Assembly: GCA_964421865.1 (NCBI GenBank)
Contig: CAYQZH010000005.1
Span: 1-46,630 of the forward strand
Direction: 5' to 3'
DNA from: an uncultured Phycisphaera sp.
Lineage (GTDB): Bacteria; Planctomycetota; Phycisphaerae; UBA1845
Length of the DNA: 46,630 nt
This document shows, piece after piece, positions 941 through 19,837 of the stretch. The translations under genes and the position numbers were made by a program. The notes under the pieces were generated by a model. That model searched no databases. It was not told where the DNA came from and was given only the letters and a program-made list of their open reading frames with translations. Position 1 is the stretch's first letter, and each line of letters opens with the position of its first letter.

Positions 941-1030
941 CAAGCGCTGCCCCAAGTCACTTCGAGTTCGTGTTGTAAGGCCTGAACCAGCAACTGGTTT
1001 CGTAACATGTCCTGCGGTTTCATAAACCGC
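941..1030 (+). repeat. ~90-bp dispersed site, copy A (putative recombination site)
   Basis: Ungapped alignment to 12438-12527 and 19748-19837 (53/90 to the latter, counted by hand); ends in palindrome GCGGTTT-CAT-AAACCGC 1014-1030. Confidence 0.7.
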
Positions 1031-1710
1031 GGATTGTCGATCAGGATGTGCGCGCTGGCTGTTCGCGTTTTCCCGGCTAGACGAGCATTTTGTCAGGCTG
1101 ATGAAGGCACGCACGCGGGCCGTTTGGGGGGTTGAGTCTATCATGGTCCACCGGAGTAGGCGGCTGCCCTTCGCGTTGCTGCAAGCGCCGCCACAGGACG
1201 TCGAAATTGCCGCTGGCACCGCCGAGTGCTTTCTGTCATTCCGATCCGCAATTCGTCTGTCGGCGTGTCACCAGTCGCCATGTCGCCGCATGACCGGATC
1301 GCGGATCGTTTCGATTCGAGTTCGACCGCTGCGACCTGTGGCTCGGGTCGCGATCGGACCTCGCTCACCGGGATCGAACGCCGCGAGCCCGGCGACGGAC
1401 GACGGGGTAGGAAAAGGCGCTTGGAAAGGGCCGAAGGCACGATGGGGGTGCACCGCTGCACGGTCGCACTCTGCGGTGCGAGGCCCGAGTCGGCTACACT
1501 CAGTCGTGTAGCCCGGCCCGACCGACCGTCGGTGCGTTTATTCCTTCGTGGTGCAAGCGACAGTGTTCGCACTTTCCCAACAATGGGAAGGCCCCGTGTC
1601 CACCTCGCCGCGCTTCAATCACCCCGAGTGTTCGCGTCGGTCCTACGCAGACCAATGAAACCACCAGCCGTTCCTTAAGTAGTGCGGTGATGCGTCGGGG
1701 TCGTATCGGC

Positions 1711-4700
1711 CTATCGGCCGGTGAAGCTTGTTTGCAGAATCGCGATGTCGGCGAGGTCGACGTCGCCGTCCGTATCGAGGTCGGCGGCGACGATTCCTTC
1801 CTCATCGGGTACGAGGGTGCATCCGGCGGGAAGGCTCGCCGGATCGTACGGGAGGCCCGGGCCGGTCATGCAGTTCTCGATTAGAACCAAGTCATCGAGG
1901 TCAACATCGCCGTCGGTATCGAGGTCCGGCGAGGCCGTCGGAACGACCACGAGCGTGATGTCCATTGACGAGTAGACCACATCGAACCGAAGACCGGGAC
2001 CGATGTTCAGACCGACCACGCGGGAGAATCGCCCAATGCGTGAGCCGAAGGTCATGACTGTGAATGTTTGGCCCAGTGTCGGTGAGAAAGCAGGATCGAG
2101 CTCAAGTTGAAGCACCCCGTCGAGTTCAGCGGATCCGGTGATGTTCAGCACATCGTAGGCCGCGGCGGGTTCAGCACCATTCAGTTCTATCTCGAGTGCC
2201 GCCGATTGACGTTGCGTGTAGCTGCCCACGATACTCAGGATGCCGGCGCTTAGTCCGGGTCGGACTATGCCGCCGTTGTTCGACACGGAAACAGTTAGGG
2301 TCCCGGTTCCGGTCAGCACCCCCCCTTGCAGGTCCAGGCGCGCCGACCTTAGCTGTCCGCCATTCAGACGGGTCACGCCGGCATCCTGGGTATAGACGCG
2401 ATCCAGATACAACTGCTCCAAGGTTCCGGTTTGCAGTTCGACGGTTCCCGAGTTGTGAAACGCCACCTCGCATTGCAGAGTTCCCGCACCCCGTTTGAGA
2501 AAGGTCCCGGTGTTGGTGAATCGCGCGCTTCCTGACCCGCCAAACAAGCCGTCGCTTACGGCGTCAAACGTTCCAGCATTCTCAAACCCGCCCGTGCCGC
2601 TCATGTTGAGGGACGTGTTCTGCCCGGCGTATGACGCGGTCTGCAAACTTCGAACCGCGCGGCTGTCACGCAAACCGAGGGCCCCAGACATCGCAACGTC
2701 ATTCTCGAAGACCGTCCGACCAGCCCCGATCATCGTGGCGGCCGTCCACGTGGATGGTCCGCTCGCACGCACCTCATCCGCGCCCGAAAGGAAACCTCCG
2801 GTTTGATCCAGTTGACCGACCGTCACTGTCTGGCCGGTGTTAAAGTTCACCGTACCTCCCCTCAAACGGAACGTCTGCACGTCGATCGCCTCATCACAGT
2901 TCAAGTTGACCGTGCCGCCGCCAACTTCCAGCGAATCTCCCAGGCTCAACACTGTCGACGCCGGAGTGAAATTCATCGTGTTGCCGTTGAGGGTCGTCTG
3001 TCGGGCCACGTCGTAAATGCCGTTCACGTTGACAATGGACCCTGACTCCGTGGTGACGTTGCCCGCCCTGATGGTGGAGGCCGGATCGAAGTCGAAGGTC
3101 TCGCTAACAAAGTTGAGCGAGGCGACCTCATCTCCCTGGAAAACACCGGTATGTGGCGTACTCGTACCCCCGGAGAGTTTGAGGATACCGCGCACAATGT
3201 TTACGACGCCGTGGTTGTTGAACTTAACGCCGACGTTCATCGTGCCGGGGCCGAGCTTATTGAACGTGCCATAGTTATGGAACAGCCCGTTGCCGGACTG
3301 CAACAACGGACCGTCGGACTCTGCGTTGAAGATGCCCGTGTTGTTGAACTCGGACGTACCCGACATTGTCAACACGGCGTCCGCCCCGGTAAATGTTGCC
3401 GTCGCCGGATTCTCCAAGGTACGATCGTCGGCAAGCACACCGTGGCCGGTGATGGTCATCCCGCCTGCGGCGGTGATCTGACCGGGTCCGCGAATATACG
3501 CTCCCTGCCATCCGCCGGACCAAAGAAATGACTCACTCACATGGATGTCGTCACCGCCTTCGATTGCACCATACGACTGGGTGAGGTTACGAATGCTCAC
3601 AGGTTTGCCGGTGTTGAAGTACACGTCAGCCATGTAACCGTGTGTGTACGTATCCAGCACAATCGGTTCATCGTTGTTGAAATGGACCGTGACCGAGCTT
3701 CCTTGGTGCGCCACCGCAATGAGATCTCGTCCCAAACTTCGCAGACTTCCCGTCGTAGTAAAGGTGATGGTGCCGCCGGTCATCGTCGTGGTACCGGTCA
3801 CGTCGTAGTGGCCGTCGATGGTCGCCTCTCCGCCGCCCCAAGCGTTGAAGACAACGCTCTCAGCTTCCACGCGCGAGCCGGGCGAAAAGGAGTGTATTCC
3901 GCGACCGAATTCCACCACGGCACCCGGCGAGCCCAGGCAGCGGGCGGAATCCGAGTGCTCGCTGCCTCCTCGCAACACGACCCTGCCTCCGATAACGCTC
4001 AGGTCGCCGTGGTTGATAAAATCGACACTGATATCAAGCGTATCCGGACCGGTTTTGCTGACCGTGGCGTAATTGAAGAAACGCGGCGAACCGTTCCACC
4101 TCTCGATGAATCCACCGGTGGCCGCAAACACGTCCCAGTTGATGAAATAGGCATTGTCCAACATGCGCATCCACGGGAGCGCCCCACCAAAAGACGTCGG
4201 AGACTCGGCACTGATGGACCGCTGGTCATAGAGCGTAACGGCAGCATTATCAATCAGAAGTCCGCCATGGGTTTCAATCAGCCCGTCGCCGCGAAGGTCA
4301 GCCGCCTGTAGCGATAAGAGACCATCCACCTCCGTGCTCCCCGGACCGTCGAGTGTTGCATAGCTGATCGTGAAATTGCTCTCCATGCGCGACCGATCCG
4401 TGGTCCGAAGCGTGCCGCCCGAGAGCACAAACCGCTCGGCGGAGCGGATCCCGAGTACTTCCGAGCCGCCTTGGGAATGAGTCACGGTGGACACGGTCGG
4501 AACATCGATACAGATATGATCGGCCGGACCGGGAACGTCGGAATTGTCCCAGTTGATGGGCTGATGCCAGAAGCCGTCACTCCCAATCCACGAGACGAAG
4601 GTTCCGCCGTCGCACTCGTCGGGCACGCCGTTGAGGTCGCAGTCCTGGGAAACGCCCGCGATTTCGCAGTCGTCGGGTACTTCGTTGGCATTGCAATCGG

Positions 4701-6758
4701 CTGCAAACCCGCAGCCAGGGACGTTGCAGAACGCCCCGAGACTTCCGAAACAGTCCACTTCGCAAAGATCGACGATTCCATTGTCGTTGCACTCGATGAT
4801 TTCGTAGGGCCCGAACGAAGTCACTTCCTCCTGCCAGTTTCCGGAGCAGTCGCCCGCGCGGATGATGAAAAAGTGCCTTCCGAGTTCAAGTGGCAGACTG
4901 GTCAACGGCGTTCCGCTGAAACCCGGGTCGGCATTAAAGTCCGGGACGGTATTGGGGTCCGACGACCACTCGTAGCTGAAGATTTCCGCGCCGGAGCCCT
5001 CGTCCGCCGGTGCGGTCCAGACGACCACGATCTCCGGGCTCGTCCCGCCCACGCCAAAGGGATGCGTGGGGGATACGAGTTCTGTGACGCGAGAGGGGGG
5101 AGTCCCGTCCTGCCAAGTGTATTCCCACCTCACGTTGTTGGCCGTTCGCCAAAGAGCGTTTTCATGCTCCGGAAATCGCGCTCTGAAGGCGTTGATGAAT
5201 TGGAGCACTGTGATCGGTTGGTCATGCGTAACTACTTCGAAGATTTCGTCAACGCCAAGATCGAGGGCGTCCTTCGCGCAGACCGGCTGCCCATCGTCTA
5301 CACCGTTGTTGTCCTGGTCCTCCATCTCGTCTTCAATGTCTCGAAGCAGGGCCCCGATGAACCCTTCGGTCTTGAACGGATCAACCAGATCGGGGATCCC
5401 ATCATTGTCGAAGTCATCCGCGATCCCGTCGTTGTCCTGGTCACAAATCCCGGTTCGTTCCAGGCTTCGGCCGAAGAGCGAGGTAATCCCATAGTCAGCA
5501 GGATACGACCGTGTTACTACGTCGGCCAACCAGTTCGGCCATCCTTCGTTCCAGGCGTCATGGAAATTCTCCGGACACCACATGCAGTGTCCTGGATTGG
5601 GGCAGCCCGCGCCGCCGTCGCAAAAACCGTTGCAGTAATCGGGAACCTCAGTCTGCGAAAAGTTATGCAAGAAATGATGGCCATACTCATGGGTGATTGT
5701 ACTCTCCTGCCACTGCTTGGCCGAACTAAGGAAAATCTCGTCGTCCAGGTATTCTGCGTTGTTCCCGCCCCCGGCACTATCCTCCGGCCATTGAACGTCG
5801 ACCTCGGGTACGTCGATTCCGGTCCGCGTTTCGATAAAACGATGGGCCCGCATGATGCGATTGAAGATGTGCAGAGCGGGGTGGTCGCGGGAAGCGTTGG
5901 GGCTGAGTTCGCCGAAGTCGATCTCCGATCCGGTGAAGTTCGGGAAATACAGGTCGTCCTTGGTGTCCCAGCTATAGTCTTCCTCGAAAACGCCGAGCTT
6001 TGGACGTTGACGACGCCCGTATCGCACTCCCATCGGACGTAAATGTCCGGGTCGTCGCACCCGGTGATGTCCCAGTCATCCCAGTTGAGGGTCACGTCGA
6101 AATACCCGTCAGCATCAGTCCGTCCCGACCACATCTCCTCGTCGAAAAAGTCATCGTCGAGGTCCATGATCTGCACCCAGATGCCATCCACGCCCATCGT
6201 TTGCGCGGGGATGTCATTCACGCCGTCTCCGTCGAGGTCCCGCGCGATCCGGTTATAGATGATCCTTCCCTGGAAATGGATCGTGTTCCCTCCCGCAACA
6301 TGACCGTCGCCCGCGGAGATGCGAGCGCCCTGCCGGCTTTGCGCCGGGCGCGGCTTACCCACCTTCGCAAAATACCCTGGGCTAAGATCCAAACTTTTCG
6401 CGGTCATCCGTCCGTTGAAACGGACGCTTACGCGCAGGGGCTTCGAGGAGTCCCCGGGTCGGGCGCGGAACGGAACGTCAACGACCTCGCCCGAACGCAC
6501 CTCTTGGGGAGTTTGTAAACCGAGCGGCTGAAGGGTCCAACTGTCGCCTTCCAGGGCGATGAAGTCGACCGTCCCGTCTCGCAATACTTGCAATCGGATG
6601 ACGCCGTCGTATTCTCTACCGGACACCGCCGGGCGTGTGTCGGCGGGCATGTGTATCTTCATGGGCGGACCGACGTCCGCCCAAACCGTTGTGACGCTTG
6701 CCGCGAAGAGCGCGCCGCAGAGAAGGAGTCTCGCTCGCCGTCCCCGTACGCCTCTCAT
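1711..6758 (-). pseudogene. Large secreted HEXXH metalloprotease / beta-helix / dockerin-like protein (~1680 aa), split by a 1-bp frameshift near 5995 (pseudogene or sequencing error)
   Basis: Signal peptide and RBS at 6758. ORF 5517..6758 reads ...VVNVQSS and continues as GVFEEDYSW in ORF 1711..6060. Contains HEYGHHFLH, DCNxNxVPDxC repeats, N/G/T-rich passenger-like repeats and paired C-terminal DLDTDGDVDLxD motifs. Confidence 0.8.
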
Positions 6759-6919
6759 GTCACCTCTCCCCGCCGTCTCTCACACCGCCACCGATGGTAG
6801 TGCGGATTGTTTTGCCCGCGTAGGGCGGTGCCCATGACCAGCATACCACGCCGCAGTAGCGTTCAATGGTGAAGACCGGGTCGCGCCGGGTGCGCTGCTG
6901 ACGGGCATCGTGCCTCTCC

Positions 6920-8506
6920 CTAAGGACCGGTAAACGCGTGCTCGAAAGCCGCATAATCGAATAGATCCACGTCCCCGTCGTTGTCCACGTCGAAATCGAA
7001 CGCGCCTGCATCGCACTGCCCGACATCAAGAGAGACAAAGTATTCGGACTGGTGCACGTCGTCACAGTCGACGACGGATCGGTCCGTTACCAGCAGTCGA
7101 ATGGTGTAGCAGCAGGGGCGCAGGCCCCGCGTGTCCCACGTTCCCAGCAGGCCGTGGACAACTGGAGCGTTGCCGTGGGCGTCGGGAATGGGAACCCAGC
7201 CGTGCTCGTCGCCTCCCGTATACCAGAGCGACCACCCGGCAAGGTGTGCGTCCGTTGCCGTCCCGACGATGTCAACCAGGCCATTGACACAACCGCAGTT
7301 GGTCGGCGTTGTAATGACGGCGGTGGGCCAGGCGTTGTCAATCGTCACATCGCGCGTCACCGTGGCCGTGTGGTTACAGAAGTCCGTGCCCCGAATGCGA
7401 ACGCGGTAATCGCCATCCGGAACGGCGGCCGCCCCCACCGCCGTATTCCACGAGGCGAACGGATCGAACGTAACCCAAGGGGGGCTCACTGAGTTAACGG
7501 GCAGGAACGCCCCCCCGGCGGCCGGCTGGTAGTCCACCGTGAAGGTTCCCGAGCAAGAGTCCCAAACGGTGCCGTCAAAACAGACGGAGCCGCCTGCGAT
7601 CAACCCGTTCGTCGGTTGCCGGACAACAAGGCTATCGAACTGGGTGTCCACGAAGACCCGATTCCGGTCCTCCGTCGACACGCCACAGCCGTTGTAACTG
7701 GTCAGCTTGAGAATGTAGTCGTCCTGCACATTCGGCGGGTTCCAGGCCGCGAGCACGTTGTTGACGACCGCGGTGTCGTTGAGAGCGATCAGGTGGAACG
7801 GATCACTTCCGTCGTCGCGCTGATAATGCAGCGTGTACCCTCCGAACTCGCCGTCTACGTCCCGGGCCGTTCCGATGACGTTGGCGCTGGTCTCGCAGAT
7901 GCATGTCCTGTGGGCGGGTGTAGTGATCACGGCCTCGGGCGGCGTTGCGTCCGCTGTGAACGTAAGGTCGTCGATCAACTCGAACCGCTCCGCGCACAGC
8001 CCCCCGGCGCCGGCCTCGATCTCGATTCGGCGGAAGCCCGCGGCCCGCTCAATACGGACGAAGACAAGAACCCGCTCGACGAGGTCTCCGTTCACCGGCA
8101 CATTCCGAAGCCCGACGCGGACGTCGGCGGCGTCGTACCAGCGAACCTGAACCGTATCGGTGGAGTTGCACCCGACGCGGACGCCGAGGTTGAAGGTCAC
8201 CGCGGTCTGGTCGATGTCAAAGGCGAGCCGAAGAAACTCCGGGCTGAACTCGTTCAGACCGTCGCCCCGGGCGCTTAGACACTGCGGCTCTGAGGTCGTT
8301 CCACCCGAGGGGTTGTAAATGATCGGATTGACTCCGGAAGTGCCGTCGGGATCGCGTCCGCTGAATCGGACGCCGGCGTACTGGGTCGTGACCACCGTTC
8401 CGACGGGAAGACCGTCGAAGTCGATTGTGGGACATTGGCCCCACGCTTCAACCCCATAACCGACGATCACCGAGAGAACTCCTCCGCACTTGAATATGCC
8501 CTTCAT
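6920..8506 (-). CDS. Secreted protein with three Ig-like repeats and C-terminal dockerin-like EF-hand motif
   Basis: ATG 8506 with AGGAG RBS, signal peptide, repeated PxAVITTP...L..W.....Y.LRL modules, ends DVDNDGDVDLFDYAAFEHAFTGP. Confidence 0.85.
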   Translation of the reverse strand: MKGIFKCGGVLSVIVGYGVEAWGQCPTIDFDGLPVGTVVTTQYAGVRFSGRDPDGTSGVNPIIYNPSGGTTSEPQCLSARGDGLNEFSPEFLRLAFDIDQTAVTFNLGVRVGCNSTDTVQVRWYDAADVRVGLRNVPVNGDLVERVLVFVRIERAAGFRRIEIEAGAGGLCAERFELIDDLTFTADATPPEAVITTPAHRTCICETSANVIGTARDVDGEFGGYTLHYQRDDGSDPFHLIALNDTAVVNNVLAAWNPPNVQDDYILKLTSYNGCGVSTEDRNRVFVDTQFDSLVVRQPTNGLIAGGSVCFDGTVWDSCSGTFTVDYQPAAGGAFLPVNSVSPPWVTFDPFASWNTAVGAAAVPDGDYRVRIRGTDFCNHTATVTRDVTIDNAWPTAVITTPTNCGCVNGLVDIVGTATDAHLAGWSLWYTGGDEHGWVPIPDAHGNAPVVHGLLGTWDTRGLRPCCYTIRLLVTDRSVVDCDDVHQSEYFVSLDVGQCDAGAFDFDVDNDGDVDLFDYAAFEHAFTGP

Positions 8507-8628
8507 GGTGCCGAACTCCTGTTTGTACCCTACACCCAAGCCGCACCCCGCGGCCCGTTGGCTACTGCTAATAGGCGCGGGCTACGCGCCGTTGGACGGG
8601 ACCACCGCTTTTTTACAGGATCCCGGGC

Positions 8629-8655
8629 ACGGATGGCCGTTGGGGCGGCTTACGC
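8629..8655 (-). promoter_or_regulatory. Candidate ECF promoter GCGTAAG-N16-CCGT for leftward cargo operon
   Basis: Same bipartite motif at 12605-12631 upstream of the rightward cargo operon. Confidence 0.35.
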
Positions 8656-8772
8656 GGATTGCCATCCACGGCGCCAATCGAGTAGGATCAAGCCGTGACA
8701 ACAGATCGCGGGTCGAGCGCCACGCCGATGTTCCCGCGAGTCGAAGTCGACCCGGCATGAAGAGATCCATTC

Positions 8773-9372
8773 GTGGACGCGGACGTCACCCGGGCCTCCC
8801 TTCTCTCGCGAGTGCGCGACGCCTCGAACGACGCAGCCTGGCGTGAGTTCGACGCCCGCTACCGCGAGTTGATTCTACGCTACGCCTTGGCCCGCGGGCT
8901 TCAACACTCCGACGCCCAAGACGTGCACCAGATCGCGATGCTCAGCCTGTCGAAGTCGCTACGGAACTTCCATTATACGGCCCAGCGCGGTCGGTTTCGC
9001 GATTATCTCGGACAAGTCGTGCGCAGCGCCCTCAGTCGGCATTTTGCGAGTCCAAAACCGGCGTCGGCGGCGCTAGATAGTAGTGTCCTGGCAAGCGTAC
9101 CGGCGGAGGACGGCGCGGCAGCGGATTCCCTCTGGGAACAGGAATGGGTAAACCACCATTACCGAGTCGCTATGCGGGTGATCCGCGAGACCTTCGAGCC
9201 ACGAAGCGTGGCGATGTTCGAGCACCTGCTCGCCGGGGCGGGCGTCGAGGAGGTGGCCGCCGCGCACGGCACGACGACGCAGGCCGTTCATAAGGTGAAA
9301 CAGCGAATCCGTGAAAGGATGAAGGAGCTTATCGCCCTTCAGATTCACGAAGAGGATCAGCCGGATGCATAG
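8773..9372 (+). CDS. ECF-type RNA polymerase sigma-70 factor
   Basis: TRASLLSRVR...AWREFDARY, DAQDVHQ, GRFRDYL region 2 and C-terminal HTH; overlaps the downstream kinase start. Confidence 0.92.
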   Translation: MDADVTRASLLSRVRDASNDAAWREFDARYRELILRYALARGLQHSDAQDVHQIAMLSLSKSLRNFHYTAQRGRFRDYLGQVVRSALSRHFASPKPASAALDSSVLASVPAEDGAAADSLWEQEWVNHHYRVAMRVIRETFEPRSVAMFEHLLAGAGVEEVAAAHGTTTQAVHKVKQRIRERMKELIALQIHEEDQPDA

Positions 9373-11944
9373 ACGGATTCCGCAGGAGGCTTGGCCCGCT
9401 GCGGGCGACCCCGATTTGTCCAACTTCGGCTTCGATCGACCGGACGAGGAGTGGCTGAGCCGGGTTCGGGAAGTCGAGCGGCCCATCCTGGTTGGTACCA
9501 TCGGTTCCTTCGAGTTGGTGGAGGAGGTCAGCCGCGGCGCGCAGGGCGTGGTGTTCCGCGCGCGACAGCCGAACACCGGGCGCGCCGTCGCCCTCAAGCG
9601 TCTGCTGAGCGGGTCGTTCGCCACGGAGGCCATGCGTGCGCGCTTCCATCGCGAGATGGAAGCTGCCGTTGCCCTGCACCATCCGTCCATCGTCAGCGTG
9701 TACGGGATGGAAATCGTCGACGGGCAACCCGTGCTGGCCATGGAATGGATCGACGGGGAGCCGATCGACCGCTGGGCCGACAGGTCGGGAATGGGTCGAC
9801 GCCCATCGCCCGACCTGCTGGGTATGTTTCTCAAACTCTGCGACGCCGTCCAACATGCGCATCAGCGCGGCGTGATCCATCGCGATCTGAAACCATCTAA
9901 CATTCTGGTGGAGCCGTCGGGCGAGCCGCACGTCCTCGATTTCGGTCTGGCGAAACTGGTCGGCCCGGCGGACGGCGGTGCGGCGGAGTTGACCCGCACG
10001 CAGGATTTCCTGGGTACGCCCGCGTACGCCGCCCCGGAGCAGGTCCGCGGCGAACACGAAGCCGTCGACGTGCGGACCGACGTTTACGCCTTGGGCGTCA
10101 TTCTCTACCAGGTGTTGACGGGCCGCCGTCCGTTTAGCTGCACAACCAATCTTCCGCAACTCCTCGACTCCATCCAGCACACGGAAGCGGATCGGCCGTC
10201 GTCGATCGAACCGACCCTCGATGACGAGATCGACGCTATTGTTCTCAAAGCGATGGCCAAGGAACCGCAGCGACGTTACCAGACCGTCGACGCCTTCGCC
10301 GCCGATATACGCCGATATCTTGCCGGCGATCCGATCGACGCCCAACGCGGTCGCCGAGGATACGTGCTTCGAAAGACCTTGCAGCGCTACAAGTTTCTCG
10401 CCTTGGCGGTGGCGGGATTCATGGTCGTGCTTACGGCGTCGGCGATTGCGCTTTCGGTCATGTACGCACGGCAGAGCGGATTGCTCGGCGCGGTGACGCA
10501 GGCGCGCGATGCGGAGACGCGTGCCCGGCGGCACGCACAAAAGCAGCAAACCACGCTGCAGCACATTCTGACGGCTGTGTCGGAGATCGGAAAGGGAGCC
10601 GACCTTCCACTCCGTCGGGCGTTGCTCGACGACGCCGCAAGGGAGGTCCAAGCCGAGCTCGCCGACGAGCCGGAGGCCAAGGCGGCGGCGTTGGATGCGA
10701 TCGGGCGAACGTATCAGACCCTGGGAATCTACGATCAGGCGGAACCGTACCTGCGCTCGGCCCTGAGTATGCGGCAAGCCCTCTTCGGGGCTGAGCATCT
10801 CGACGTGGCCGCCAGCTTGAACAACCTGGGGGAGCTGCTTCTCGATACCACCAAGTTCCGCGAGAGCGAGCCGTTCCTGCGCGAGGCGCTGACCATCCGC
10901 CAACGACTCCTGGGCGGTGAGAATCGTGCCAGCGACGCGATCGCCGAAAGTCTGAACAACGTCGGGTTGGTCATGCAGGGAAAACATGACTACGAAGCCG
11001 CGGAGGCGCTGCATCGGGCCGCACTCGCACAATATCGTCAACTCCACGGGGCAGAGAGCCCCGGAATCGCGACCAGTCTAAACTGGGTCGGGTGTTCGCT
11101 CGCCAACCGAGGCGCGTTTCGTGAGGCTGAGCAGATTTTCCGGGACGTCCTCGCCATGCAGCGTCGCCTGCACGGCGATGCGCATCGCGAGACGGCGGAG
11201 AGCAAGATCGCCCTGGCCAAGGCGCTCCACCTCCGCGGAGACTATGCTGGCGCGGAACCGCTATTCCGCGAGGCGATCGCCACCTACCGCGAATTGTTGG
11301 GCGATGAGCATGACAACGTCGCATGGGGCCTGCACCGGCTGGGCGTGCTCCTGCACGCCCAGGGTCGATATGCCGAAGCGGAAAGCCATTTGCGTGCGTC
11401 GCTGGCGATCTATCGAAAGTGTCTCGGCGACAATGACCCTTATGTGTCGTTCGTTCTGGACAGCCTTGGAACCCTCCTGATGGATCAAGGGGACTTCGCC
11501 GGTGCTGAGCCGCTGTTCAACGAGTCCGTGGCGATCTGGCGGGCTCGACACGGGCCGGAGAGTGCCGCGGTCGCATGGAAGTTGAACCGACTGGGGGAGC
11601 TTCGTTGGGCTCAGGGTGATTTCGAGGCCGCCGAACCATTGCTCCGTGGTGCACTGACGAATCGCACCCTGTTCGCGGGGTTCGAACACGTCTATCTCAT
11701 CCGCAGTCTGCACGGCCTGGGGGCGCTGCTGACGAACAACGACGAGTACGTGGAGGCGGAAGGGTTTTACCGCGAGGCCCTGGAGTTGCAGCGTAGTCAG
11801 TTCGGGGCCAAACACCCGGATGTACGGAAAACGGTCCAGCGTCTGATCGATCTGTATGACGCCTGGGGCGACTCGCAGAAAGCCGATGAGTTTCGCACGA
11901 TGCAGGAGGCCATCGCGGTGCCGCCCGAAAACGAAACCCCGTAG
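9365..11944 (+). CDS. Membrane Ser/Thr protein kinase with C-terminal TPR repeats
   Basis: VALK, HRDLKPSN, DFG and APE motifs; one hydrophobic segment; ~42-aa TPR repeats. Confidence 0.95.
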   Translation: MHRRIPQEAWPAAGDPDLSNFGFDRPDEEWLSRVREVERPILVGTIGSFELVEEVSRGAQGVVFRARQPNTGRAVALKRLLSGSFATEAMRARFHREMEAAVALHHPSIVSVYGMEIVDGQPVLAMEWIDGEPIDRWADRSGMGRRPSPDLLGMFLKLCDAVQHAHQRGVIHRDLKPSNILVEPSGEPHVLDFGLAKLVGPADGGAAELTRTQDFLGTPAYAAPEQVRGEHEAVDVRTDVYALGVILYQVLTGRRPFSCTTNLPQLLDSIQHTEADRPSSIEPTLDDEIDAIVLKAMAKEPQRRYQTVDAFAADIRRYLAGDPIDAQRGRRGYVLRKTLQRYKFLALAVAGFMVVLTASAIALSVMYARQSGLLGAVTQARDAETRARRHAQKQQTTLQHILTAVSEIGKGADLPLRRALLDDAAREVQAELADEPEAKAAALDAIGRTYQTLGIYDQAEPYLRSALSMRQALFGAEHLDVAASLNNLGELLLDTTKFRESEPFLREALTIRQRLLGGENRASDAIAESLNNVGLVMQGKHDYEAAEALHRAALAQYRQLHGAESPGIATSLNWVGCSLANRGAFREAEQIFRDVLAMQRRLHGDAHRETAESKIALAKALHLRGDYAGAEPLFREAIATYRELLGDEHDNVAWGLHRLGVLLHAQGRYAEAESHLRASLAIYRKCLGDNDPYVSFVLDSLGTLLMDQGDFAGAEPLFNESVAIWRARHGPESAAVAWKLNRLGELRWAQGDFEAAEPLLRGALTNRTLFAGFEHVYLIRSLHGLGALLTNNDEYVEAEGFYREALELQRSQFGAKHPDVRKTVQRLIDLYDAWGDSQKADEFRTMQEAIAVPPENETP

Positions 11945-12437
11945 GGGCGAAGGTCGAGCAAGCGCTGCCGCACGCGCTGCGTCACGAGACCGATCGCCTG
12001 CGTCCGAAATGGTCGGCGCGGCGGCGCCGTCGGTCGCTTGACGATGAGGGCGCGGCGGATGGCGACAGCGACGCACGGAGCCCTCCTGCGGCCGCTGCCG
12101 TCCACGCCACGGTGTTGGGGATCGGCGGCGTTGACGTTCGGGTCGCCGGCCTGGCCGCGGAGGGAGGGCCAGACGAGCAAGAGGAATTCCCGTCCAGCTG
12201 CGCGGGGGTTCTTCCAGAGGCTTTTGGGGGGGAAGAACTGCATGGTCCATGTGCGGCCATGCGGTGGCGGGGGTGAGTTTCCAAGTCCGGGGGAGGGAAA
12301 CGGAGTCTTCGGCTGTTCCGCTTGGCCTCGAGGCGTGCGGAATGCAAACCCCGGGCCCTTTGGGGCCACCGAGGTGGCGAGCGAATCGGGGAACCGGGCG
12401 GATGTTCGCCCCGGGGCGATGGCGCCACCGACGCTGG

Positions 12438-12527
12438 CGAGCGTCGCTCCAAAACAATAGGGATGCGAAGCGTTAGGCTCGAAAGGGCGTAGATTTAGGC
12501 GTCGCGTTCAGCGCTTTCATAAACCGC
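12438..12527 (+). repeat. ~90-bp dispersed site, copy C
   Basis: CGAGCGTCGCTCCAAAAC...TCGAAA...GATTTA...GCGCTTTCATAAACCGC aligns without gaps to 941-1030 and 19748-19837. Confidence 0.7.
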
Positions 12528-12604
12528 TGATTTTAGGGTTAGACGGTTGATCATCTTCGCCAGGATTCGGGCGCTGACGGATGGGGTGGCAACTCCTTTC
12601 CGAT

Positions 12605-12631
12605 GCGTAAGAACATGCTGTTGATCACCGT
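12605..12631 (+). promoter_or_regulatory. Candidate ECF promoter GCGTAAG-N16-CCGT for rightward cargo operon
   Basis: Matches 8629-8655 (minus) in both boxes and spacing. Confidence 0.35.
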
Positions 12632-12902
12632 CCAGGGGCCGGGCAGGCGAAGGTCGAGGTAGGCCCGGAAGCGCCTGGAATGGTCGATTCCGTGGTCTGG
12701 GACCAGCGAAACGGGCCACCAGAGCCGCAGAATGACGACCCAGCGATCCGGGATCCTCACGGACGCTCTGGAATCGAAGAGGCTGAATCCGTATGATGGG
12801 GGTTCGATCGCTTGGGCACACGCCATTGGGGGATCTCGCCTTGGGCCGCATCGCCCAAGGCATGCCACGGAGGAGCCTCGTCGGCTCGACGGAGGGCGAA
12901 AC

Positions 12903-15900
12903 ATGCGCGTCGTCCGGCAACTAGTAACAACAATAATGCTATTGGCATGTGCCTTGTCTTGGACGCTTCCAGCGGCAGGCGGCCCGGTTCTCGGCGACTG
13001 GGATCAGGACGCCGACCGCGATCTGGCGGACTTTGCTCAACTGACGAACTGCCAGTCGATGGCACACCCATCGGATGCGCCGGCGTGTGGGGCATTCAAA
13101 TTCTCACCGGGCACGCAGATCAGCGCGCTTGACTTCCGGTTGTTCACCTGTGGCTTCAACGGGCCGGGCGTTCCCGTTAGCGCGGTCACGGTGGGCCCGC
13201 AGCCCTCGCCAACCACGGAGCTCAATGTGACGCTGACCGGGACGACCGCCGGCGCCATGCTCGTCCAAGTCACGGGTGGCGTGCAGTCCGTCACGGTCCC
13301 GACCAGCGGTTGCGACTATGCCGCGTTTGTACAGCTCCGACCCAACGTCGTGAACCACTTGTTCGTCACCGGCATCTTTGGCGACGGCATCGCGAGCGCG
13401 CCGATTCCGGCTTCGATCACGCACGACAAGCAAGCCCCCGGCCTGTTCATCGATTTTCCAGCAGCCAACGCCGAGATCACAGCCCCAACTACGGACGTAG
13501 CTGGGCGCGTCGGCGACACGCTGAGCGGGTTCGCCGGTCTGACCGTTACGGTCGCCGTGAACAACGGGCCGCCCGTACCCGCCGCCGTCGAGATCGGTAT
13601 CGGCACCAACGGGACCTTCTTCGTTCCGCAGTCGTCGCTCGATGTCGGTGCGAACACGATCACCGCGGTTGCCCGAGACGCGGTGGGGAACTCCGCACAA
13701 AGGCAGACCAGCGTCACGCGCGTCGAGATACCGCCCGACGCCGCGGTGATTGAGCTCCTTTCGGGAAACGGACAGTCTGCCCCGATCGACGCTCCGCTGC
13801 CCGATCCGATCGTGGTGCAGGTGACCAACATGAGGGGCGGGCCTCTCCAGGGCAAGCTGGTCAACTTCAACGTCATACGCAGTGACGGGCGCTTGGCGGC
13901 TAGTGCAGCCGAATTGACAGGTCACGGCAACAGGGTGCTGCAGGTCTTTACTGATGCGGAGGGCGTCGCGAAGGCGTTTTGGCGGGTCGGCAGTGATGCC
14001 GGATGCGGCAACAACCGCGTCGAGGTCACCTCGACCGACGTGGTCGGCACGACCTTCTTTTGCGCCTCGGCGACGCATGGCCCGGCGGCGCAGATCAACG
14101 TCGGGTCCGGCAACAACCAACATGCGGAGGCAGGCGGTGAAGCGCCCGAGCCGCTGATCGCCTGGGTCAACGACGCCTGCAACCCGGTAAGAGGAATCCC
14201 CGTCACGTTCACCGTGATTCAGGGTGGCGGGAAGGTCAACGGATCGGGCGCGGCAACGTTGGATACCGATCTTACCGGCCATGCCGAGGTCCGATTTACG
14301 CTTGGAGAAGTCAGCGGGAACAACGTCATCGAAGCCACTTTCCCCGGCAACCCCAATCCGTCCGCTATTTTCACGGTAGTCGGTTTGGTTCGCGACGAAA
14401 GCAGGCCCACGCGCTTCGCGGGGCTGGTACTCGACAACGCCGGCCAGCCCATCCAAGGAGCTACCTGTGCACTCAGCTTGGGCGAGATCACTTTGCCCGC
14501 CGTCCTCTCGGACCTGAACGGTCAGTTCCAGTTCGACGATGTGCCCGGCTCGGGTCCGGCGGATCTCCGCGTGAACGGCGCCACCGCGACACGTGTCGGT
14601 GGGGCAGGCGGGACCGTGGTTCCGGCCAACTCCTTCCCCTTCTTGCACTACACCACGTTGATCGTACCGCACGCCTCGAATTCGTTGCCGACGCCGGTTC
14701 TGCTGCCTCGTCTCGATCCCGCCAACGTTCGGTCCTACAGCCGGACTCAGGACACCGAGCTGACCGTTGCGGGCATCGCGGGCCTGAAGATGATCGTGAA
14801 GGCCGGGTCGATGAGCGGCCTCGTCGGCGGGCAGCTCGTGCCCGCGCCCGACGGCATTCCGATCTACCTCAACCAGGTGCACCATGATGACATTCCGATG
14901 CCGCTGCCCGACGGCGCCGCGCCGCCGTTCGCCTGGACGCTGCAGCCCGCCGGGGCGCATTTCGACCCGCCCGTGAAAATAATCTATCCGAACATGTCCG
15001 GCCTGCCCGCCGGAGCGATCGCCAACTTCCTGAGCTTCAACCACGACACCTTCCGGTTCGAGATCGTCGCCAGCGGACATGTCACCGATGACGGGCAGTG
15101 CATCGAAAGCGATCCCGGTGTGGGCATCACCACGGCCGGCTGGGGCTGCAACTGCCCGCCCTATGCCGTCACCGGTGATTGCTGCAAATGCAACGCACCT
15201 TGTCAACGGTGCCTGATTGGGGTGTGCGTGCCGACCGGAAACGGGAGTCCCTGCGGCGGCGGATGCTGCGCCGAGGGCCAATCCTGTTGCGAGGGAAACT
15301 GCATCGATGCGCGAAACATTTGCTGCGACAACGGGGTGGAATTCTTCCCCGGATTTCCACAGTGTTGCGGCGAGGGGTGTTGCATAGCGGACGGCGTATG
15401 CTGCGACGACGAATGTCAGCTTCCAGGCTCGACGTGTTGCTTTGCGGGTCTTGTTTGCAGCCCACCGACGCCGCAGTGCTGCGGACAGCGGTGCTGCGAC
15501 GCCGACGAAGTGTGCTGCGACGGGACCTGCTTTCTCGAGGGGAGTATATGTTGCGCTAGTGGCGGCGCGTGTCGGTCCCCGAACTCGGTTTGCTGCGGCG
15601 GCTTTTGTCTTCCTGCGGGGTCCGTGTGTTGTCCTGACGGTAGCTCTTGTCCAGCCACAAATCCGGTGTGCTGCGGCGACTTTTGTCTTCCTGCGGAGCT
15701 AGTGTGTTGTCCTGACGGTAGCTCTTGTCCAGCCACGAGGCCGGTGTGCTGCGGAGACGGCTGCTGCAGCGCCGGCAACGTGTGTTGCTACGGCATATGT
15801 CTTATTCCGGGCGCCATCTGTTGCCCCGGAGTTCTCCTCATTTGCCCCTACTTCGCCCCGCAGTGCTGCGGGAACAACTGCTGTTGCCGCTTGGGCGAAA

Positions 15901-15959
15901 TGTGTTGCATAGACGGAGAGGCCTGCTCGTGTGTGCCCACGGGTCAGCCTTGCCCTTGA
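12903..15959 (+). CDS. Secreted protein: N-terminal dockerin-like motif, Ig-like (SGNGQ/SGNNQ) and carboxypeptidase-regulatory-like domains, Cys-rich C-terminus
   Basis: GGAGG RBS before ATG 12903, signal peptide, DWDQDADRDLADF, and ~270-aa CC-repeat tail. Confidence 0.85.
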   Translation: MRVVRQLVTTIMLLACALSWTLPAAGGPVLGDWDQDADRDLADFAQLTNCQSMAHPSDAPACGAFKFSPGTQISALDFRLFTCGFNGPGVPVSAVTVGPQPSPTTELNVTLTGTTAGAMLVQVTGGVQSVTVPTSGCDYAAFVQLRPNVVNHLFVTGIFGDGIASAPIPASITHDKQAPGLFIDFPAANAEITAPTTDVAGRVGDTLSGFAGLTVTVAVNNGPPVPAAVEIGIGTNGTFFVPQSSLDVGANTITAVARDAVGNSAQRQTSVTRVEIPPDAAVIELLSGNGQSAPIDAPLPDPIVVQVTNMRGGPLQGKLVNFNVIRSDGRLAASAAELTGHGNRVLQVFTDAEGVAKAFWRVGSDAGCGNNRVEVTSTDVVGTTFFCASATHGPAAQINVGSGNNQHAEAGGEAPEPLIAWVNDACNPVRGIPVTFTVIQGGGKVNGSGAATLDTDLTGHAEVRFTLGEVSGNNVIEATFPGNPNPSAIFTVVGLVRDESRPTRFAGLVLDNAGQPIQGATCALSLGEITLPAVLSDLNGQFQFDDVPGSGPADLRVNGATATRVGGAGGTVVPANSFPFLHYTTLIVPHASNSLPTPVLLPRLDPANVRSYSRTQDTELTVAGIAGLKMIVKAGSMSGLVGGQLVPAPDGIPIYLNQVHHDDIPMPLPDGAAPPFAWTLQPAGAHFDPPVKIIYPNMSGLPAGAIANFLSFNHDTFRFEIVASGHVTDDGQCIESDPGVGITTAGWGCNCPPYAVTGDCCKCNAPCQRCLIGVCVPTGNGSPCGGGCCAEGQSCCEGNCIDARNICCDNGVEFFPGFPQCCGEGCCIADGVCCDDECQLPGSTCCFAGLVCSPPTPQCCGQRCCDADEVCCDGTCFLEGSICCASGGACRSPNSVCCGGFCLPAGSVCCPDGSSCPATNPVCCGDFCLPAELVCCPDGSSCPATRPVCCGDGCCSAGNVCCYGICLIPGAICCPGVLLICPYFAPQCCGNNCCCRLGEMCCIDGEACSCVPTGQPCP
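15591..15754 (+). repeat. 78-bp tandem repeat (2 copies plus start of a third) in Cys-rich tail
   Basis: Units start 15591, 15669 and 15747, encoding CCGxFCLPAxxVCCPDGSSCPATxPV. Confidence 0.9.
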
Positions 15960-15975
15960 TCTGGAAGCGACGACG

Positions 15976-18900
15976 ATGAAACCTGCTTGGACGATATGGG
16001 CGGTCATGTTGGTAGCCGCGGCGCGCGCCGATCGCGTGAATGCGCAGCAACTCAACGATTCCTGCACGGTGACGGTGAACGGGCAGACCGTGCAAGTCAA
16101 TTCCGACGGGACATTCGTGATCCCCAACGTCGCCGCGGCGGACCTGTTCGGACCCGGCGGACCGGGGACGGTACCCGATTTCCTGAGCGATGATTTTCTC
16201 CGCGTGGTGGGCACCTGCACCAGCGGCGGGCAGCCGGTGTATGTCACGAGCGAGTGTTTCCGCATTCGACGGGGCCAGTCCTTTCAGGTTGGTGAATTGA
16301 CGTTCAGTACCGTTCCGCCGCAGGGTCTGGCCGCCGTCCGCGCGGCCCCGGGTGAGCCCACGTTGACCACGGTCGGTCAACAGACACCCATCAACCTGAC
16401 CGGCTTCTACATCGACGGGTCAAGCGGGCCGCTCGATCCCAACCTGCACTGCCCGGCGACGTTCCGAACGAGCAATCCAAGGGTCGTGACGGTCGCGCCG
16501 GACCTGAACAACCCGCAGACGGGCGTGGCCACGGCTCGCGGCGCAGGCACGGCCCTCATCACCGCCTCCGTCGAGGGCGCCACGTCGGTGACCTCCATTA
16601 CCGTTTCCCTGGGCGATCCGCTCACCACCGTCACCGGGATCGTGCAAACGACGGACGGTGACCTAGTCGATGGGGCGGTCGTCCGCTTCCTGGTCAACGG
16701 GGTGGTGATCAGCGGAACCGCCGTTACCGGGGGGCCGGGTCAAGCGCCCGGACAATTCACCGCGACAGGTGTGGCCTCTCAACTTGGTCCCATCTCCGCC
16801 TACGCGGAGGCGACGGTGAGTGCGGTGCTACGGTCGGGCGTGAGCCTCTCAAAGATTCCCGTGCCCGGCGGATTCACCGACGCCGGATTGATCACCCTCG
16901 ACGACAGGGTCTTCTGGATTACGAACGCCAGCGGCCTCTGGCAGTCCGGCGCAAACTGGAGCGGCGGCGCTCCGCCGAGACCCACACAAACCGCCCTCAT
17001 CGACGTGCCCGCGGACATCACCGTCACACACTCGCTGCTCGGCACCAGCTCCATCGCCAGCCTGCGATCGGAGGAGAACTTCTCGCTGGTTCAGGGCACG
17101 CTCTCGCTGGCCGAGGCTTCCTTCGTCAACGGACGGTTCTCACAAAGCAACAGTTCCCTCGGAGGCGCTGGAACACTAGCGGTCAACGATCTCTACACCT
17201 GGACGAGCGGTACGATGGGGATTGGTGCGACAGGTGGCGGGACGACGCTGCTCAATAGCGGGATGACCCTCGCCGGAACCCTCACCAAGCAGTTGATCGG
17301 CCGCACGCTCACCAACGCCAACAACGGCGTGATCCGTTGGACTGCCGGGGTGCTGTTTTTCAGTCAGGGCTCGGTGTTCAACAATGAAACCGGGTCGACG
17401 TTCGACATTCAGACCGACGCCGGGACCGGCGCTTCCGGCACGATCTCTACGTTCAACAACGCCGGGACCGTTCGCAAGTCCGCGGGAAGCGGCGTGGCCA
17501 TTCTCAGCGGCATCAACTTCAACAACAGCGGCACGGTCGCGGTCGAGACCGGAACCCTTCGGGTCGGCGGCGGAAGCAGTTCGGGCAGCTTCACGGTCTC
17601 TCCCGGCGCGACGATGGAGTTTTCACCCTTCAACAATTTGCCGCACGCGATCACGGGCCAGGTCACGATTCCGGTCGGCGCCACCCTGCGCTTCGCCGGC
17701 TTCACCACCAACGTCAACGGCCCGACGGCAATCGCCGGGGCGATCGTGGCGACCGAAGGCGCAGTGGCGAACTTCAACGCCGTTGCCTCCGCGGGCGTGT
17801 CGGCGTCATCGATTTCGCTTAACGGCGTAGTGGCCCCCACCGTCACCTTCGCCGCACCCGTGACCACCGCCGCCGTTACGCAAAGTTCGGGCGTCCTCGG
17901 CGGCGCTGGTACGTTGACGGTCAGTGGTCCTTATAACTGGACGGGCGGCACGATGGGCGTCGGCGCCAACGGCGGCGGCACGACGCTCTTGAATGGCGGC
18001 ATGACCCTCGCCGGAACGCTCACCAAGCAGTTGACCGCGCGAACGCTGACCAACACCAACAACGGCGTGATCCGGTGGACTGCCGGGGTGCTGTCCTTCA
18101 GTCAAGGCTCGGTGCTAGACAATCAAACGGGATCGACATTCGACATTCAGACCGACGCCGGGACCGGCGCTTCCGGCACGATCTCTACGTTCAACAACGC
18201 CGGGACCGTTCGCAAGTCCGCGGGAAGCGGCGTGGCCATTCTCAGCGGCGTCAACTTCAACAATAGCGGGACGGTCGCGGTTGAGACCGGATCATTGCGG
18301 ATCGGAAACGGAAGCAGTTCGGGAAGTTTCGTGGTCTCTCCGGGTGCGACAATCGACGTATCGCCCTCCGGTGGTGCGGGTCACACGATTACGGGGGACG
18401 TGACGATTCCACTCGGCGCTACGCTGAGGTTCGCCGGTTTCGGTTCAACCACCAACGTCAACGGCCCGACCACAGTCGCGGGTGCGATCGTGGCCACCGG
18501 CGGCGCGACTGTGAACTTCAACGCTGGCGCTTCCGCGGGTGTCTTGGCATCATCGATCCTGCTTTCCGACCTAAACCCCCCCGCGGGCACAAACTTGAAC
18601 GCCGCCGGCGCCGTCACCACCACCGCCTTCACCCAGAGCGCCGGAACTCTCGGCGGACCCGGGACGCTCACCGTCAACGGTCCCTACACCTGGACGGGCG
18701 GCACGATGGGGGTCGCTGCTTCAGGCGGGACCACGCTGCTCAACGGTGGAATGACCCTCGCCGGAACGCTCACCAAGCAGTTGACCGCGCGAACGCTGAC
18801 CAACACCAACAACGGCGTGATCCGGTGGACTGCCGGGGTGCTGTCCTTCAGTCAAGGCTCGGTGTTAAACAATGAAACCGGGGCGACGTTCGACATACAG

Positions 18901-19563
18901 ACCGACGCGGACACAATCGGTTCCGGTGCCGTCTCGACGTTCAACAACTCGGGCACCCTCCGCAAGTCCGCCGGAAGCGCCACGACCTCGCTGGCCGGTG
19001 CGAACTTCATCAATTCCGGCGTCGTCGAAGTCATGACCGGTACACTGGATTTTCCGAACGTGACCTACACGCAATCGTCGGGCGACACAATCCTCTTGGG
19101 TGGTGCAGTCAGCAAAACCGGCAGCGTCATACAGATCAATGGCGGAACGATCGGACTCGGTGCTGCCACGTCGTCGGGTACGATTACCGGCAGCGTCACG
19201 TGTGGCGGCTCCCCGGGCGGGACCGTTACGCCGCGCCCAGGCGCTGCCGGCACGCTGACGATTTCGGGGACCTACACACAGAACGCCGGCGGCACGCTGG
19301 ACATCGAGCTGGGCGGCACGTCGCCAGGCAGCAGCTATGACCAACTGGTCGTCGGTACGGCCGCACTCGGCGGCACGCTCCAGCTCACACTGATCAACGC
19401 CTTCACCCCGACCGTCGGGCAGCAGTTCACGATCCTGACGGCTGGCAGCCTCAGCGGGACGTTCTCAACGGTCACGCTGACCAACTTCCCGGCCAACCGC
19501 GGCGTCAATGTAAGCTACAACAGCCCAACCGGCACCGTGACCGTCATGATCACCGGGCCGTGA
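15976..19563 (+). CDS. Secreted Ig-like + beta-helix (autotransporter-passenger-like) repeat protein without beta-barrel
   Basis: Signal peptide MKPAWTIWAVMLVAAARA, QQLNDSCTVTVNG N-domain, Big-2-like segment, three ~245-aa G/T/N-rich repeats. Confidence 0.85.
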   Translation: MKPAWTIWAVMLVAAARADRVNAQQLNDSCTVTVNGQTVQVNSDGTFVIPNVAAADLFGPGGPGTVPDFLSDDFLRVVGTCTSGGQPVYVTSECFRIRRGQSFQVGELTFSTVPPQGLAAVRAAPGEPTLTTVGQQTPINLTGFYIDGSSGPLDPNLHCPATFRTSNPRVVTVAPDLNNPQTGVATARGAGTALITASVEGATSVTSITVSLGDPLTTVTGIVQTTDGDLVDGAVVRFLVNGVVISGTAVTGGPGQAPGQFTATGVASQLGPISAYAEATVSAVLRSGVSLSKIPVPGGFTDAGLITLDDRVFWITNASGLWQSGANWSGGAPPRPTQTALIDVPADITVTHSLLGTSSIASLRSEENFSLVQGTLSLAEASFVNGRFSQSNSSLGGAGTLAVNDLYTWTSGTMGIGATGGGTTLLNSGMTLAGTLTKQLIGRTLTNANNGVIRWTAGVLFFSQGSVFNNETGSTFDIQTDAGTGASGTISTFNNAGTVRKSAGSGVAILSGINFNNSGTVAVETGTLRVGGGSSSGSFTVSPGATMEFSPFNNLPHAITGQVTIPVGATLRFAGFTTNVNGPTAIAGAIVATEGAVANFNAVASAGVSASSISLNGVVAPTVTFAAPVTTAAVTQSSGVLGGAGTLTVSGPYNWTGGTMGVGANGGGTTLLNGGMTLAGTLTKQLTARTLTNTNNGVIRWTAGVLSFSQGSVLDNQTGSTFDIQTDAGTGASGTISTFNNAGTVRKSAGSGVAILSGVNFNNSGTVAVETGSLRIGNGSSSGSFVVSPGATIDVSPSGGAGHTITGDVTIPLGATLRFAGFGSTTNVNGPTTVAGAIVATGGATVNFNAGASAGVLASSILLSDLNPPAGTNLNAAGAVTTTAFTQSAGTLGGPGTLTVNGPYTWTGGTMGVAASGGTTLLNGGMTLAGTLTKQLTARTLTNTNNGVIRWTAGVLSFSQGSVLNNETGATFDIQTDADTIGSGAVSTFNNSGTLRKSAGSATTSLAGANFINSGVVEVMTGTLDFPNVTYTQSSGDTILLGGAVSKTGSVIQINGGTIGLGAATSSGTITGSVTCGGSPGGTVTPRPGAAGTLTISGTYTQNAGGTLDIELGGTSPGSSYDQLVVGTAALGGTLQLTLINAFTPTVGQQFTILTAGSLSGTFSTVTLTNFPANRGVNVSYNSPTGTVTVMITGP
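17150..19030 (+). repeat. Three internal ~740-750-bp repeats in beta-helix gene
   Basis: ATGACCCTCGCCGGAAC blocks at 17263, 18001 and 18751; 18001-18114 is identical to 18751-18864. Confidence 0.9.
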
Positions 19564-19747
19564 GAACAGCGACCAGTCGTCAGTGACTGGGGCCTGTCTG
19601 ACGAATCGTTTTGGGGCATCGTGCTGGCATTTCAGGGCATCGGAGACTCGAAGCAATCAGGATGAAGGTCTCACCCGTGTCGGCGCGGAATGTTTCGCCA
19701 AGTCCGTGCAAGTCTCAGGAGTTGCGCCAGGGTCTCCTGAGAATACG

Positions 19748-19837
19748 CAAGCGCCGCCCCAAGACGCTTGTTGTCCGGTTCCTAGAATTCGAAATGACAT
19801 TGATTTACGCAATCCGGTCTACGGTTTTGTAAACAGC
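19748..19837 (+). repeat. ~90-bp dispersed site, copy B
   Basis: CAAGCGCCGCCCCAAGAC...CTACGGTTTTGTAAACAGC, ungapped with the copies at 941 and 12438. Confidence 0.7.

Follow-up and report, generated by a model that had tools for sequence, protein, structure and literature searches.

The window analyzed here, the complete 46.6-kb contig C5 (46,630 nt) from the 4.26-Mb, 408-contig assembly of an uncultured Phycisphaera sp., contains three copies of a 90-bp direct repeat, designated A (941-1030), B (12438-12527), and C (19748-19837), which lie between modules of large cargo genes. From sequence comparison we surmise, with a probability of about 0.7, that each copy is the relic of the attR-side junction (att, attachment site) of an island that used the anticodon arm of a tRNA-Thr(UGU) gene as its attachment core. 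The copies belong to a dispersed repeat family; the core of the repeat is of tRNA origin, the remainder follows the frame of an integrase tail on the minus strand, and three islands elsewhere in the same genome possess an integrase gene split between their two ends. A, B, and C would themselves have arisen through insertions at these exact places and would now be inactive.

A dispersed repeat with a tRNA-derived core

Copies A, B, and C are intergenic, all lie on the plus strand between large genes, as described in a first-pass annotation of this DNA, and align without gaps. Their pairwise identities over 90 positions are 52 (A-B, where the annotation had counted 53), 53 (A-C), and 54 (B-C), with 38 invariant columns, and they delimit units of 11,497 bp (A-B) and 7,310 bp (B-C). 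Searching the genome with an nhmmer profile restricted to the three window copies, as the annotation had recommended, revealed further copies at C77:3674-3761 (E 4.7e-16), C126:1409-1321 (2.2e-13), and C37:20275-20189 (2.6e-6); one profile iteration added C88:11930-11837 (1e-7). Weaker matches are present on C349, C2, and C106. The repeat family thus has at least seven copies in this genome. The C77 copy shares 59 positions with A and 71 with C, and the C126 copy shares 66 with C, as compared with 52-54 of 90 among A, B, and C. Since the window copies are no more alike mutually than to those on other contigs, they are not local duplicates; being as diverged from one another as from copies elsewhere, they would come from different islands rather than from one duplication.

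Whether the alignment would stand up to shuffling had been left as a doubt, and it does so. A profile consisting only of foreign copies (19 rows from 15 other genomes) matches C at E 9.2e-24 (78.0 bits), A at 3.5e-15 (50.4 bits), and B at 1.9e-6 (22.2 bits), while elsewhere in the window no match exceeds 3.9 bits, and 50 shuffled versions of the window give 10.1 bits at best; the foreign rows were first selected by a model trained on own-genome copies, so that this control is partly dependent.

The distribution of the family was assessed with a covariance model of seven own copies, run on 101 genomes of the same bacterial family at a cut-off of E ≤ 0.01. Matches were found in 27 of these genomes (the present one included), representing 20 of 54 genera; many have a single copy, and two have at least seven matches. 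Plain BLAST of positions 900-1400 against 40 relatives gave no match, and the family was recognized only through the covariance model. Clustering of the open reading frames (ORFs) that flank the copies returned only the copy-overlapping ORF, kinase paralogues, and secreted-protein paralogues, and Pfam analysis of neighboring ORFs (34 of the 62 listed) revealed unrelated functions; a conserved protein gene adjoining the copies was rejected on these two results.

The right-hand block of the repeat, a palindrome, corresponds to positions 27-43 of the tRNA-Thr(TGT) gene of the same genome (C106:4332-4404). In five of the 12 best foreign copies this core leads without a break into the remainder of the tRNA (variable loop, T arm, and acceptor strand), such that positions 27/28-72/73 of tRNA-Thr(TGT) are present at 87-100% identity (G110:C73, G072:C7, G024:C248, G108:C285, and G014:C71). 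Because these five match the tRNA onward from the core, the palindrome is the anticodon stem-loop of tRNA-Thr(UGU). Among the eight own copies, similarity to the tRNA 3′ half is significant by shuffling only for C349. ARAGORN found no whole tRNA at the copies in the 19 loci scanned, and no tRNA-Thr 5′ half was found when 18 oriented contexts (11 foreign, seven own) were followed upstream for as much as 8 kb, results which exclude an intron in a tRNA-Thr gene as the origin of the repeat. In copies A, B, C37, and C88 the loop contains CAT instead of TGT. The exact CAT palindrome is found at only five places in 3 of the 101 genomes, always inside repeat copies, and judging from this distribution the CAT type appears to be a sub-lineage of the repeat for which no second tRNA target was identified.

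A separate arrangement is seen on contig C77. An inverted tRNA-Thr(TGT) 5′ fragment (positions 1-40; C77:3974-4013, minus strand) lies approximately 210 nt after the repeat copy, and about 650 nt beyond it are a tRNA-Gln (4661-4736) and an integrase; the whole has the appearance of an inversion or of a nested insertion.

Codons of a conserved C-terminal peptide, encoded on the minus strand, make up the left and central blocks. Over about 143 nt, that is, the 90-bp copy together with an upstream extension common to C, C77, C126, and most foreign copies, one minus-strand frame is free of stops in 12 of 16 aligned copies, whereas the other five frames mostly contain one to four. The tail peptide begins in the anticodon arm; the central block reads V-N-Q-C-Y-F and the left block R-L-G-A-A-L-A-H, and the peptide ends 25-35 residues past the left block with a W-P-x-L-P type motif, a short helix-like stretch, and a stop. 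Across the last 25 or so residues the DNA varies and the amino-acid character is kept; this similarity of residues despite change in the DNA supports coding.

These two assignments bear upon the interpretation offered by the first-pass annotation, which regarded the copies as multi-subsite, res-like sites of a recombinase different from that of the tRNA-targeted vehicle. Three conserved blocks at fixed spacing, one of them palindromic, would suit the res sites of a serine recombinase or the attC sites of an integron-type integrase, and Tn3-family res sites are likewise about 100 bp long with three conserved blocks. Unlike those sites, the copies have no resolvase gene and no dimer-binding inverted-repeat blocks, and they originate from coding sequence and a tRNA arm: only the right block is palindromic, being the anticodon arm, and the other two have no inverted-repeat structure, reading instead as conserved codons. 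Pfam analysis of the 25 window ORFs revealed no recombinase domain, and no serine recombinase or IntI gene was encountered among the 34 neighboring proteins scanned (of 62 listed ORFs). The copies form only two short helices, not the stable hairpin of the attC kind, and no intI-like gene accompanies them. Sites of the res or attC type are consequently a scarcely credible explanation. What survives of the annotation is an origin in site-specific recombination and a specificity (tRNA-Thr core) distinct from that of the outer tRNA-Gly repeats described below; the recombinase expected beside the copies, serine or tyrosine, is absent from the window, and the tyrosine integrases tied to this architecture are found elsewhere.

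The three window copies have decayed to different degrees. Copy A (plus strand; foreign-only profile 50.4 bits) combines a minus-strand integrase-tail coding remnant with an att core at 1014-1030, which is a perfect 7+3+7 palindrome having CAT in the anticodon-loop position. Read by eye, the tail frames of A and B contain TGA stops (two in A), one of them made by the CAT loop. Copy A is followed on the plus strand by an extension (1031-1371) at the place where a tRNA 3′ half and its flank are expected. These approximately 340 nt are homologous to C126 and, on C349 and C106, to the stretches next to unmistakable 3′ fragments of tRNA-Thr, which they follow (the fragment on C106 being at C106:13171); 1269-1366 match C126 at 77% identity (E 2.4e-11). 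The tRNA part inside the extension is no longer recognizable. A decayed integrase was sought there by tblastn with two integrases, and none was found in the extension or on C126 and C349, except for the tail region of C126.

Copy B (plus strand; 22.2 bits, E 1.9e-6) is the most decayed, its core (12511-12527) having a CAT loop and a single mismatch in the stem; the copy is located 494 nt past the kinase gene and 205 nt ahead of the gene for a 1075-residue protein. Copy C retains a TGT loop in its core (19821-19837), with one mutated base in the 3′ stem. With its upstream extension it constitutes a tail remnant on the minus strand (19674-19880), in which two open pieces, 19785-19880 and 19674-19781, are separated by one in-frame stop and are matched by the tail protein profile at E 2.5e-6 and 3.9e-10.

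Split integrase genes and the origin of the window copies

Integrase genes were located by tblastn on seven contigs of this genome, none of which is C5. A tail-peptide profile compared with the six frames of the genome matched the repeat copies and, weakly (E 0.003-0.02), sites on C56, C59, C106, and C75. On the last three contigs the match lies in an open frame leaving the displaced 3′ fragment of a tRNA whose intact gene adjoins an integrase. They represent complete islands at tRNA-Thr(TGT) (C106:4332-13171; 3′ fragment 13121-13171), tRNA-Thr(CGT) (C59:4057-15303; fragment 15272-15303), and tRNA-Lys (C75:2191-10466; fragment 2191-2242). Each has its integrase beside the intact tRNA, a 3′ fragment of 32-52 nt 8-11 kb away, and a tail-like open frame that reads from the fragment. 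When the island ends are joined in silico the integrase frame is continuous across the tRNA-derived core in all three, giving products of 580, 593, and 569 residues with closely similar tails; in its integrated state the C59 integrase frame ends 19 residues beyond the junction. The core therefore sits inside the integrase frame of the excised form, and the C-terminal coding part is found at the far junction beside the displaced fragment. In these three islands integration has parted the integrase gene and left its tail at the opposite end. Within the repeat family itself, an ORF of G072:C7 with a Phage_integrase domain (E 2.2e-14) continues through the tRNA 3′ part and the repeat copy.

Islands of the mirror type also exist. 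At G014:C6:4688-22983 and G072:C30:37655-40043 the intact tRNA-Thr(TGT) gene is preceded by a 5′ fragment of it (positions 1-46 or 1-38). The G014 island has its integrase beside the intact tRNA, reading toward the tRNA 5′ end; in the G072 island the fuller integrase match is upstream of the 5′ fragment, and a partial match lies beside the tRNA. Both island modes are thus present in this bacterial family.

The window copies would be explained as follows. A tyrosine integrase gene would span its own attP, with the catalytic body on one side; the frame would pass antisense through the tRNA-derived core and end in a conserved tail of some 70-115 residues, the tRNA-derived part included. Integration would split the gene; the body would remain beside the restored tRNA, and the tail and core would be left at the opposite end of the island. 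Serial insertion (accretion) at a tRNA-Thr-type site, followed by loss of the integrase bodies, would leave three scars in direct order between cargo modules, and the whole stack would later have been carried within one unit of the tRNA-Gly array. In an Islander-type examination of the window copies, the 46.6-kb contig proved to have neither a tRNA-Thr nor an integrase, and no fragment was recognizable behind the core; the copies are accordingly best described, from their present structure, as scars and not as bounded islands.

Several observations weigh against this explanation. The CAT-loop subtype matches no tRNA of this bacterial family, and the tRNA 3′ half is not detectable behind A, B, or C, the observed score being reached by 1589, 759, and 250 of 2000 shuffles, respectively. 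The tail protein profile does not match A (at E ≤ 10) or B, and these two are placed in the family only by DNA profiles. G072:C7, the sole contiguous integrase-to-tail case of the family, enters the tail frame only via a 1-nt deletion relative to the consensus. No integrase with this tail was recovered from the protein collection and a search with the G072:C7 tail region gave 0 matches, finding none being weak evidence; searching longer proteins with the tail profile returned only three small ORFs (214-231 residues) and no integrase. No whole tRNA-Thr lies on the island side of 10 foreign copies (5-19 kb of sequence each), nor was a complete island of the repeat family, with intact tRNA-Thr and integrase at its other end, encountered among the contexts examined. 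Finally, the left block does not vary, third codon positions included, and the apparent difference in variability among codon positions is small (0.69, 0.54, and 0.78 bits). Besides coding, a requirement of the DNA itself, for example, for arm-type binding sites, may contribute to the constancy of this block.

The invariance of the left block in DNA also suits a reading in which the repeat serves the cassettes encoding an extracytoplasmic function (ECF) sigma factor and a kinase as a functional element without coding capacity, for example, as a small RNA or as a promoter and its operator. The open frame and the tRNA-like arm would then be incidental. Five of the seven strong own copies are on contigs with this type of ECF/kinase pair, a kinase-like gene is found near the G024 copy and similar ORF pieces near the G108 copy, and, from one subtype to another, the hairpins of the upstream extension are altered on both of their sides (an alignment read by eye, not counted). 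We nevertheless judge this improbable. Rfam 15 gave no match to the repeat: the only hits in the whole window are to tRNA-Gly, and nothing meaningful appears at E ≤ 5 within 400-1800. The RNAalifold consensus of seven own copies is weak, with two short helices of -7.9 (plus strand) and -6.1 kcal/mol (minus strand). No gene is consistently downstream on either strand, the neighbors in other genera are unrelated (Fic, hydrogenase, fasciclin, and two-component genes), and in G002, which belongs to the same genus, the homologue of the 1075-residue protein has no B-like copy ahead of its gene. The direct run-on into the tRNA 3′ half in five genomes would also go unexplained. Promoters of the sigma-70-like and ECF-like kinds were looked for by eye on both strands and rejected, their spacings being off by 2-3 nt and not conserved.

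Cargo modules and the outer tRNA-Gly tier

The A-B module (1711-11944) contains three secreted or surface-type ORFs on the minus strand, 1711-6060, 5517-6758, and 6920-8539 (1449, 413, and 539 residues), and, divergent from these on the plus strand, an ECF sigma gene (8773-9372) and a Ser/Thr kinase gene with tetratricopeptide (TPR) repeats (9365-11944). The first-pass annotation recognized the ECF sigma and kinase genes but counted two cargo genes in place of three. The B-C module, described there as a secreted pair, has on the plus strand between 12732 and 19563 two large ORFs, 12732-15959 (1075 residues, with Ig-like domains) and 15931-19563 (1210 residues, with internal repeats of approximately 740-750 nt).

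The further statement of the annotation that the copies mark cargo boundaries is supported in part by relatives. In G002 homologues of the 539-residue protein, ECF sigma factor, and kinase are encoded together on contig C4, and relatives of the 1075- and 1210-residue proteins on contigs C77 and C62, away from the ECF/kinase module. In another genus, two copies 3.7 kb apart on G072:C45 flank a single secreted-protein gene, related to those for the 1210- and 1449-residue proteins of the window. Against exact bracketing, the C4 module of G002 is without the genes for the 1449- and 413-residue proteins, and in G002 a B-like copy is missing both ahead of the 1075-residue homologue and from the roughly 1.9 kb that follow the kinase gene. 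As far as gene order indicates, the copies thus mark module borders only partly.

The same observations could be taken to mean that the copies are live attachment sites, at which an integrase from elsewhere in the genome moves integrase-less cargo modules in the manner of cis-mobilizable elements. The copies stand in direct orientation at module borders, 13 core bases are identical between A and B, module content varies between species of the genus, the G072:C45 pair flanks a single homologous gene, and integrases of the same broad type are encoded on seven other contigs of this genome. Yet the cores differ from one another (A, CAT; B, CAT with a stem mismatch; C, TGT with a stem mismatch), the tail frames of the window copies contain stops, divergence of the arms amounts to 41-42%, and we know of no integrase with CAT-type specificity. 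Public sequencing runs were also consulted: window DNA is present in eight runs of two sediment studies, with no RNA run among them, and the contigs of four were inspected. These bridge A (X1), B (X1, X2, and X4), and C (X1 and X2) in the order of the window, and in the contigs of the four runs no joint between copies was found, which is weak evidence as contigs drop rare forms. The joints that do occur are confined to internal gene repeats, apart from two low-depth odd joins in X3, away from the copies. Live sites are therefore unlikely, and decayed scars of past insertions remain the preferred explanation.

Internal gene repeats lie at 17157-18944 and 37878-38797. Those in the gene for the 1210-residue protein have units of 738-750 nt, and the contigs of two runs differ there by one unit; the kinase gene contains seven 126-nt repeats, which are the TPR units.

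The modules belong to a larger order. The window comprises three units, each of which has, on its minus strand, large genes of the secreted or surface type and, divergent from them on the plus strand, genes for an ECF sigma factor (PF07638 family by Pfam) and a Ser/Thr kinase with TPR repeats. They are set apart by repeats consisting of the first 36-38 nt of tRNA-Gly(TCC) and an extension of approximately 130 nt, found at 521-690 (plus strand; 5′ half 523-559), 20059-20230, and 39671-39843. The intact tRNA-Gly(TCC) gene (45444-45515) is downstream of all three, and the successive spacings are 19,538, 19,612, and 5,771 nt. No integrase was found on contig C5, either by Pfam analysis of the 25 window ORFs or by tblastn with integrases. 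Fragments of the 5′ half characterize a rarer island mode, 159 of 3919 islands according to the figures given for Islander (PMC4383910).

The order of tRNA-Gly fragment and extension, approximately 200 nt, and a CAT-type copy recurs on contig C102 of G002, a second species of the genus, and for this reason at least the junction at A is old.

Some further features deserve mention. A 3′ fragment of tRNA-Gly(TCC) (positions 29-72, 100% identity) is present in the same genome at C196:726-769, and therefore, as judged from this one sequence, the tRNA gene of the window appears to have served in the ordinary 3′ mode also. The stretch at 452-518, before the first tRNA-Gly fragment, recurs over 59-67 nt on C376, C248, C183, and C115 (95-98% identity) and is a separate short repeat; the contigs from public runs also end at 452. 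Contig C49 begins with 55 nt whose reverse complement is identical to positions 1-55; this is probably an assembly overlap, the locus carrying on into C49. Between 21234 and 27776 the minus strand encodes a 2180-residue ORF with SpvB, TcdB middle/N-terminal, FG-GAP, and RHS-repeat domains, a polymorphic toxin shell of the Rhs/Tc type, which adjoins a 1912-residue protein with a laminin-G domain.

Relation to known systems

The scars belong to elements of a kind already described, in which an Mx8-type split integrase is located at tRNA-gene islands, and are not a new type of recombination site. Mx8, which reportedly targets a tRNA-Asp gene, resembles Mx9 and the integrases of SSV-type archaeal viruses in having attP inside the integrase gene, with the C-terminal part moved to the other junction; the islands on C106, C59, and C75 share this layout in three of three cases, with a tRNA-derived core. 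In the Mx8 account attP lies within int and integration gives the gene a new 3′ end, which converts intP to intX (PMC6070905). Islander, as described, lets tRNA gene fragments overlap integrase ORFs on the grounds that Mx8 and SSV integrases extend across attP (PMC4383910). Mx8 is a phage, and the elements described here are, by contrast, islands of an uncultured sediment bacterium; what is split off in them is a conserved tail of about 80-120 residues (tRNA-derived stretch included) following the catalytic domain, and the window has decayed tails only, without integrase bodies. Among the papers listed by a literature search, none was on the integrase-spanning-attP layout in planctomycete-like bacteria.

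The scars also resemble the tRNA-gene islands of Islander, and the anticodon-centered attP class of Williams, in that the crossover is at the anticodon loop, a 3′ fragment is displaced in direct orientation, and the integrases are of the tyrosine type. They depart from Islander islands in that an intact tRNA-Thr and an integrase are both missing from the window, and in the decay of the fragments behind the core. Tandem arrays are likewise on record for Islander, 125 with at least two members and four with at least three among 3919 islands (PMC4383910); unlike those arrays, the scars of the window are nested in an array of tRNA-Gly 5′ halves, the rarer class.

A further parallel comes from Streptococcus thermophilus, in which the accretion of integrative elements involves integrase-less cis-mobilizable elements (CIMEs). 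Like these, the window has recombinase-less cargo modules between direct repeats of the att type; in contrast to CIMEs, its repeats are strongly diverged and any mobility here is only putative. A bolder extension would be that throughout the bacterial family tRNA-targeting integrases are split in the Mx8 manner, and that the units of tail and core act as secondary landing pads at which integrase-less modules are stacked or swapped in trans. We regard this as doubtful. If true, modules encoding ECF sigma factors, kinases, and giant secreted proteins would be nested in islands of the rare tRNA 5′-half type, forming a two-level cassette system without a resident recombinase.

The proposal of a new class of recombination sites is thus replaced by a concrete origin, the tail of an integrase gene joined to a tRNA anticodon arm. 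At least three islands of an uncultured sediment bacterium follow the Mx8-type layout as a rule, and scars of this kind are spread over 20 of the 54 sampled genera of its family. For annotation, such scars flag old island borders within arrays of large cargo genes and account for small conserved "hypothetical" ORFs which run antisense through tRNA fragments.

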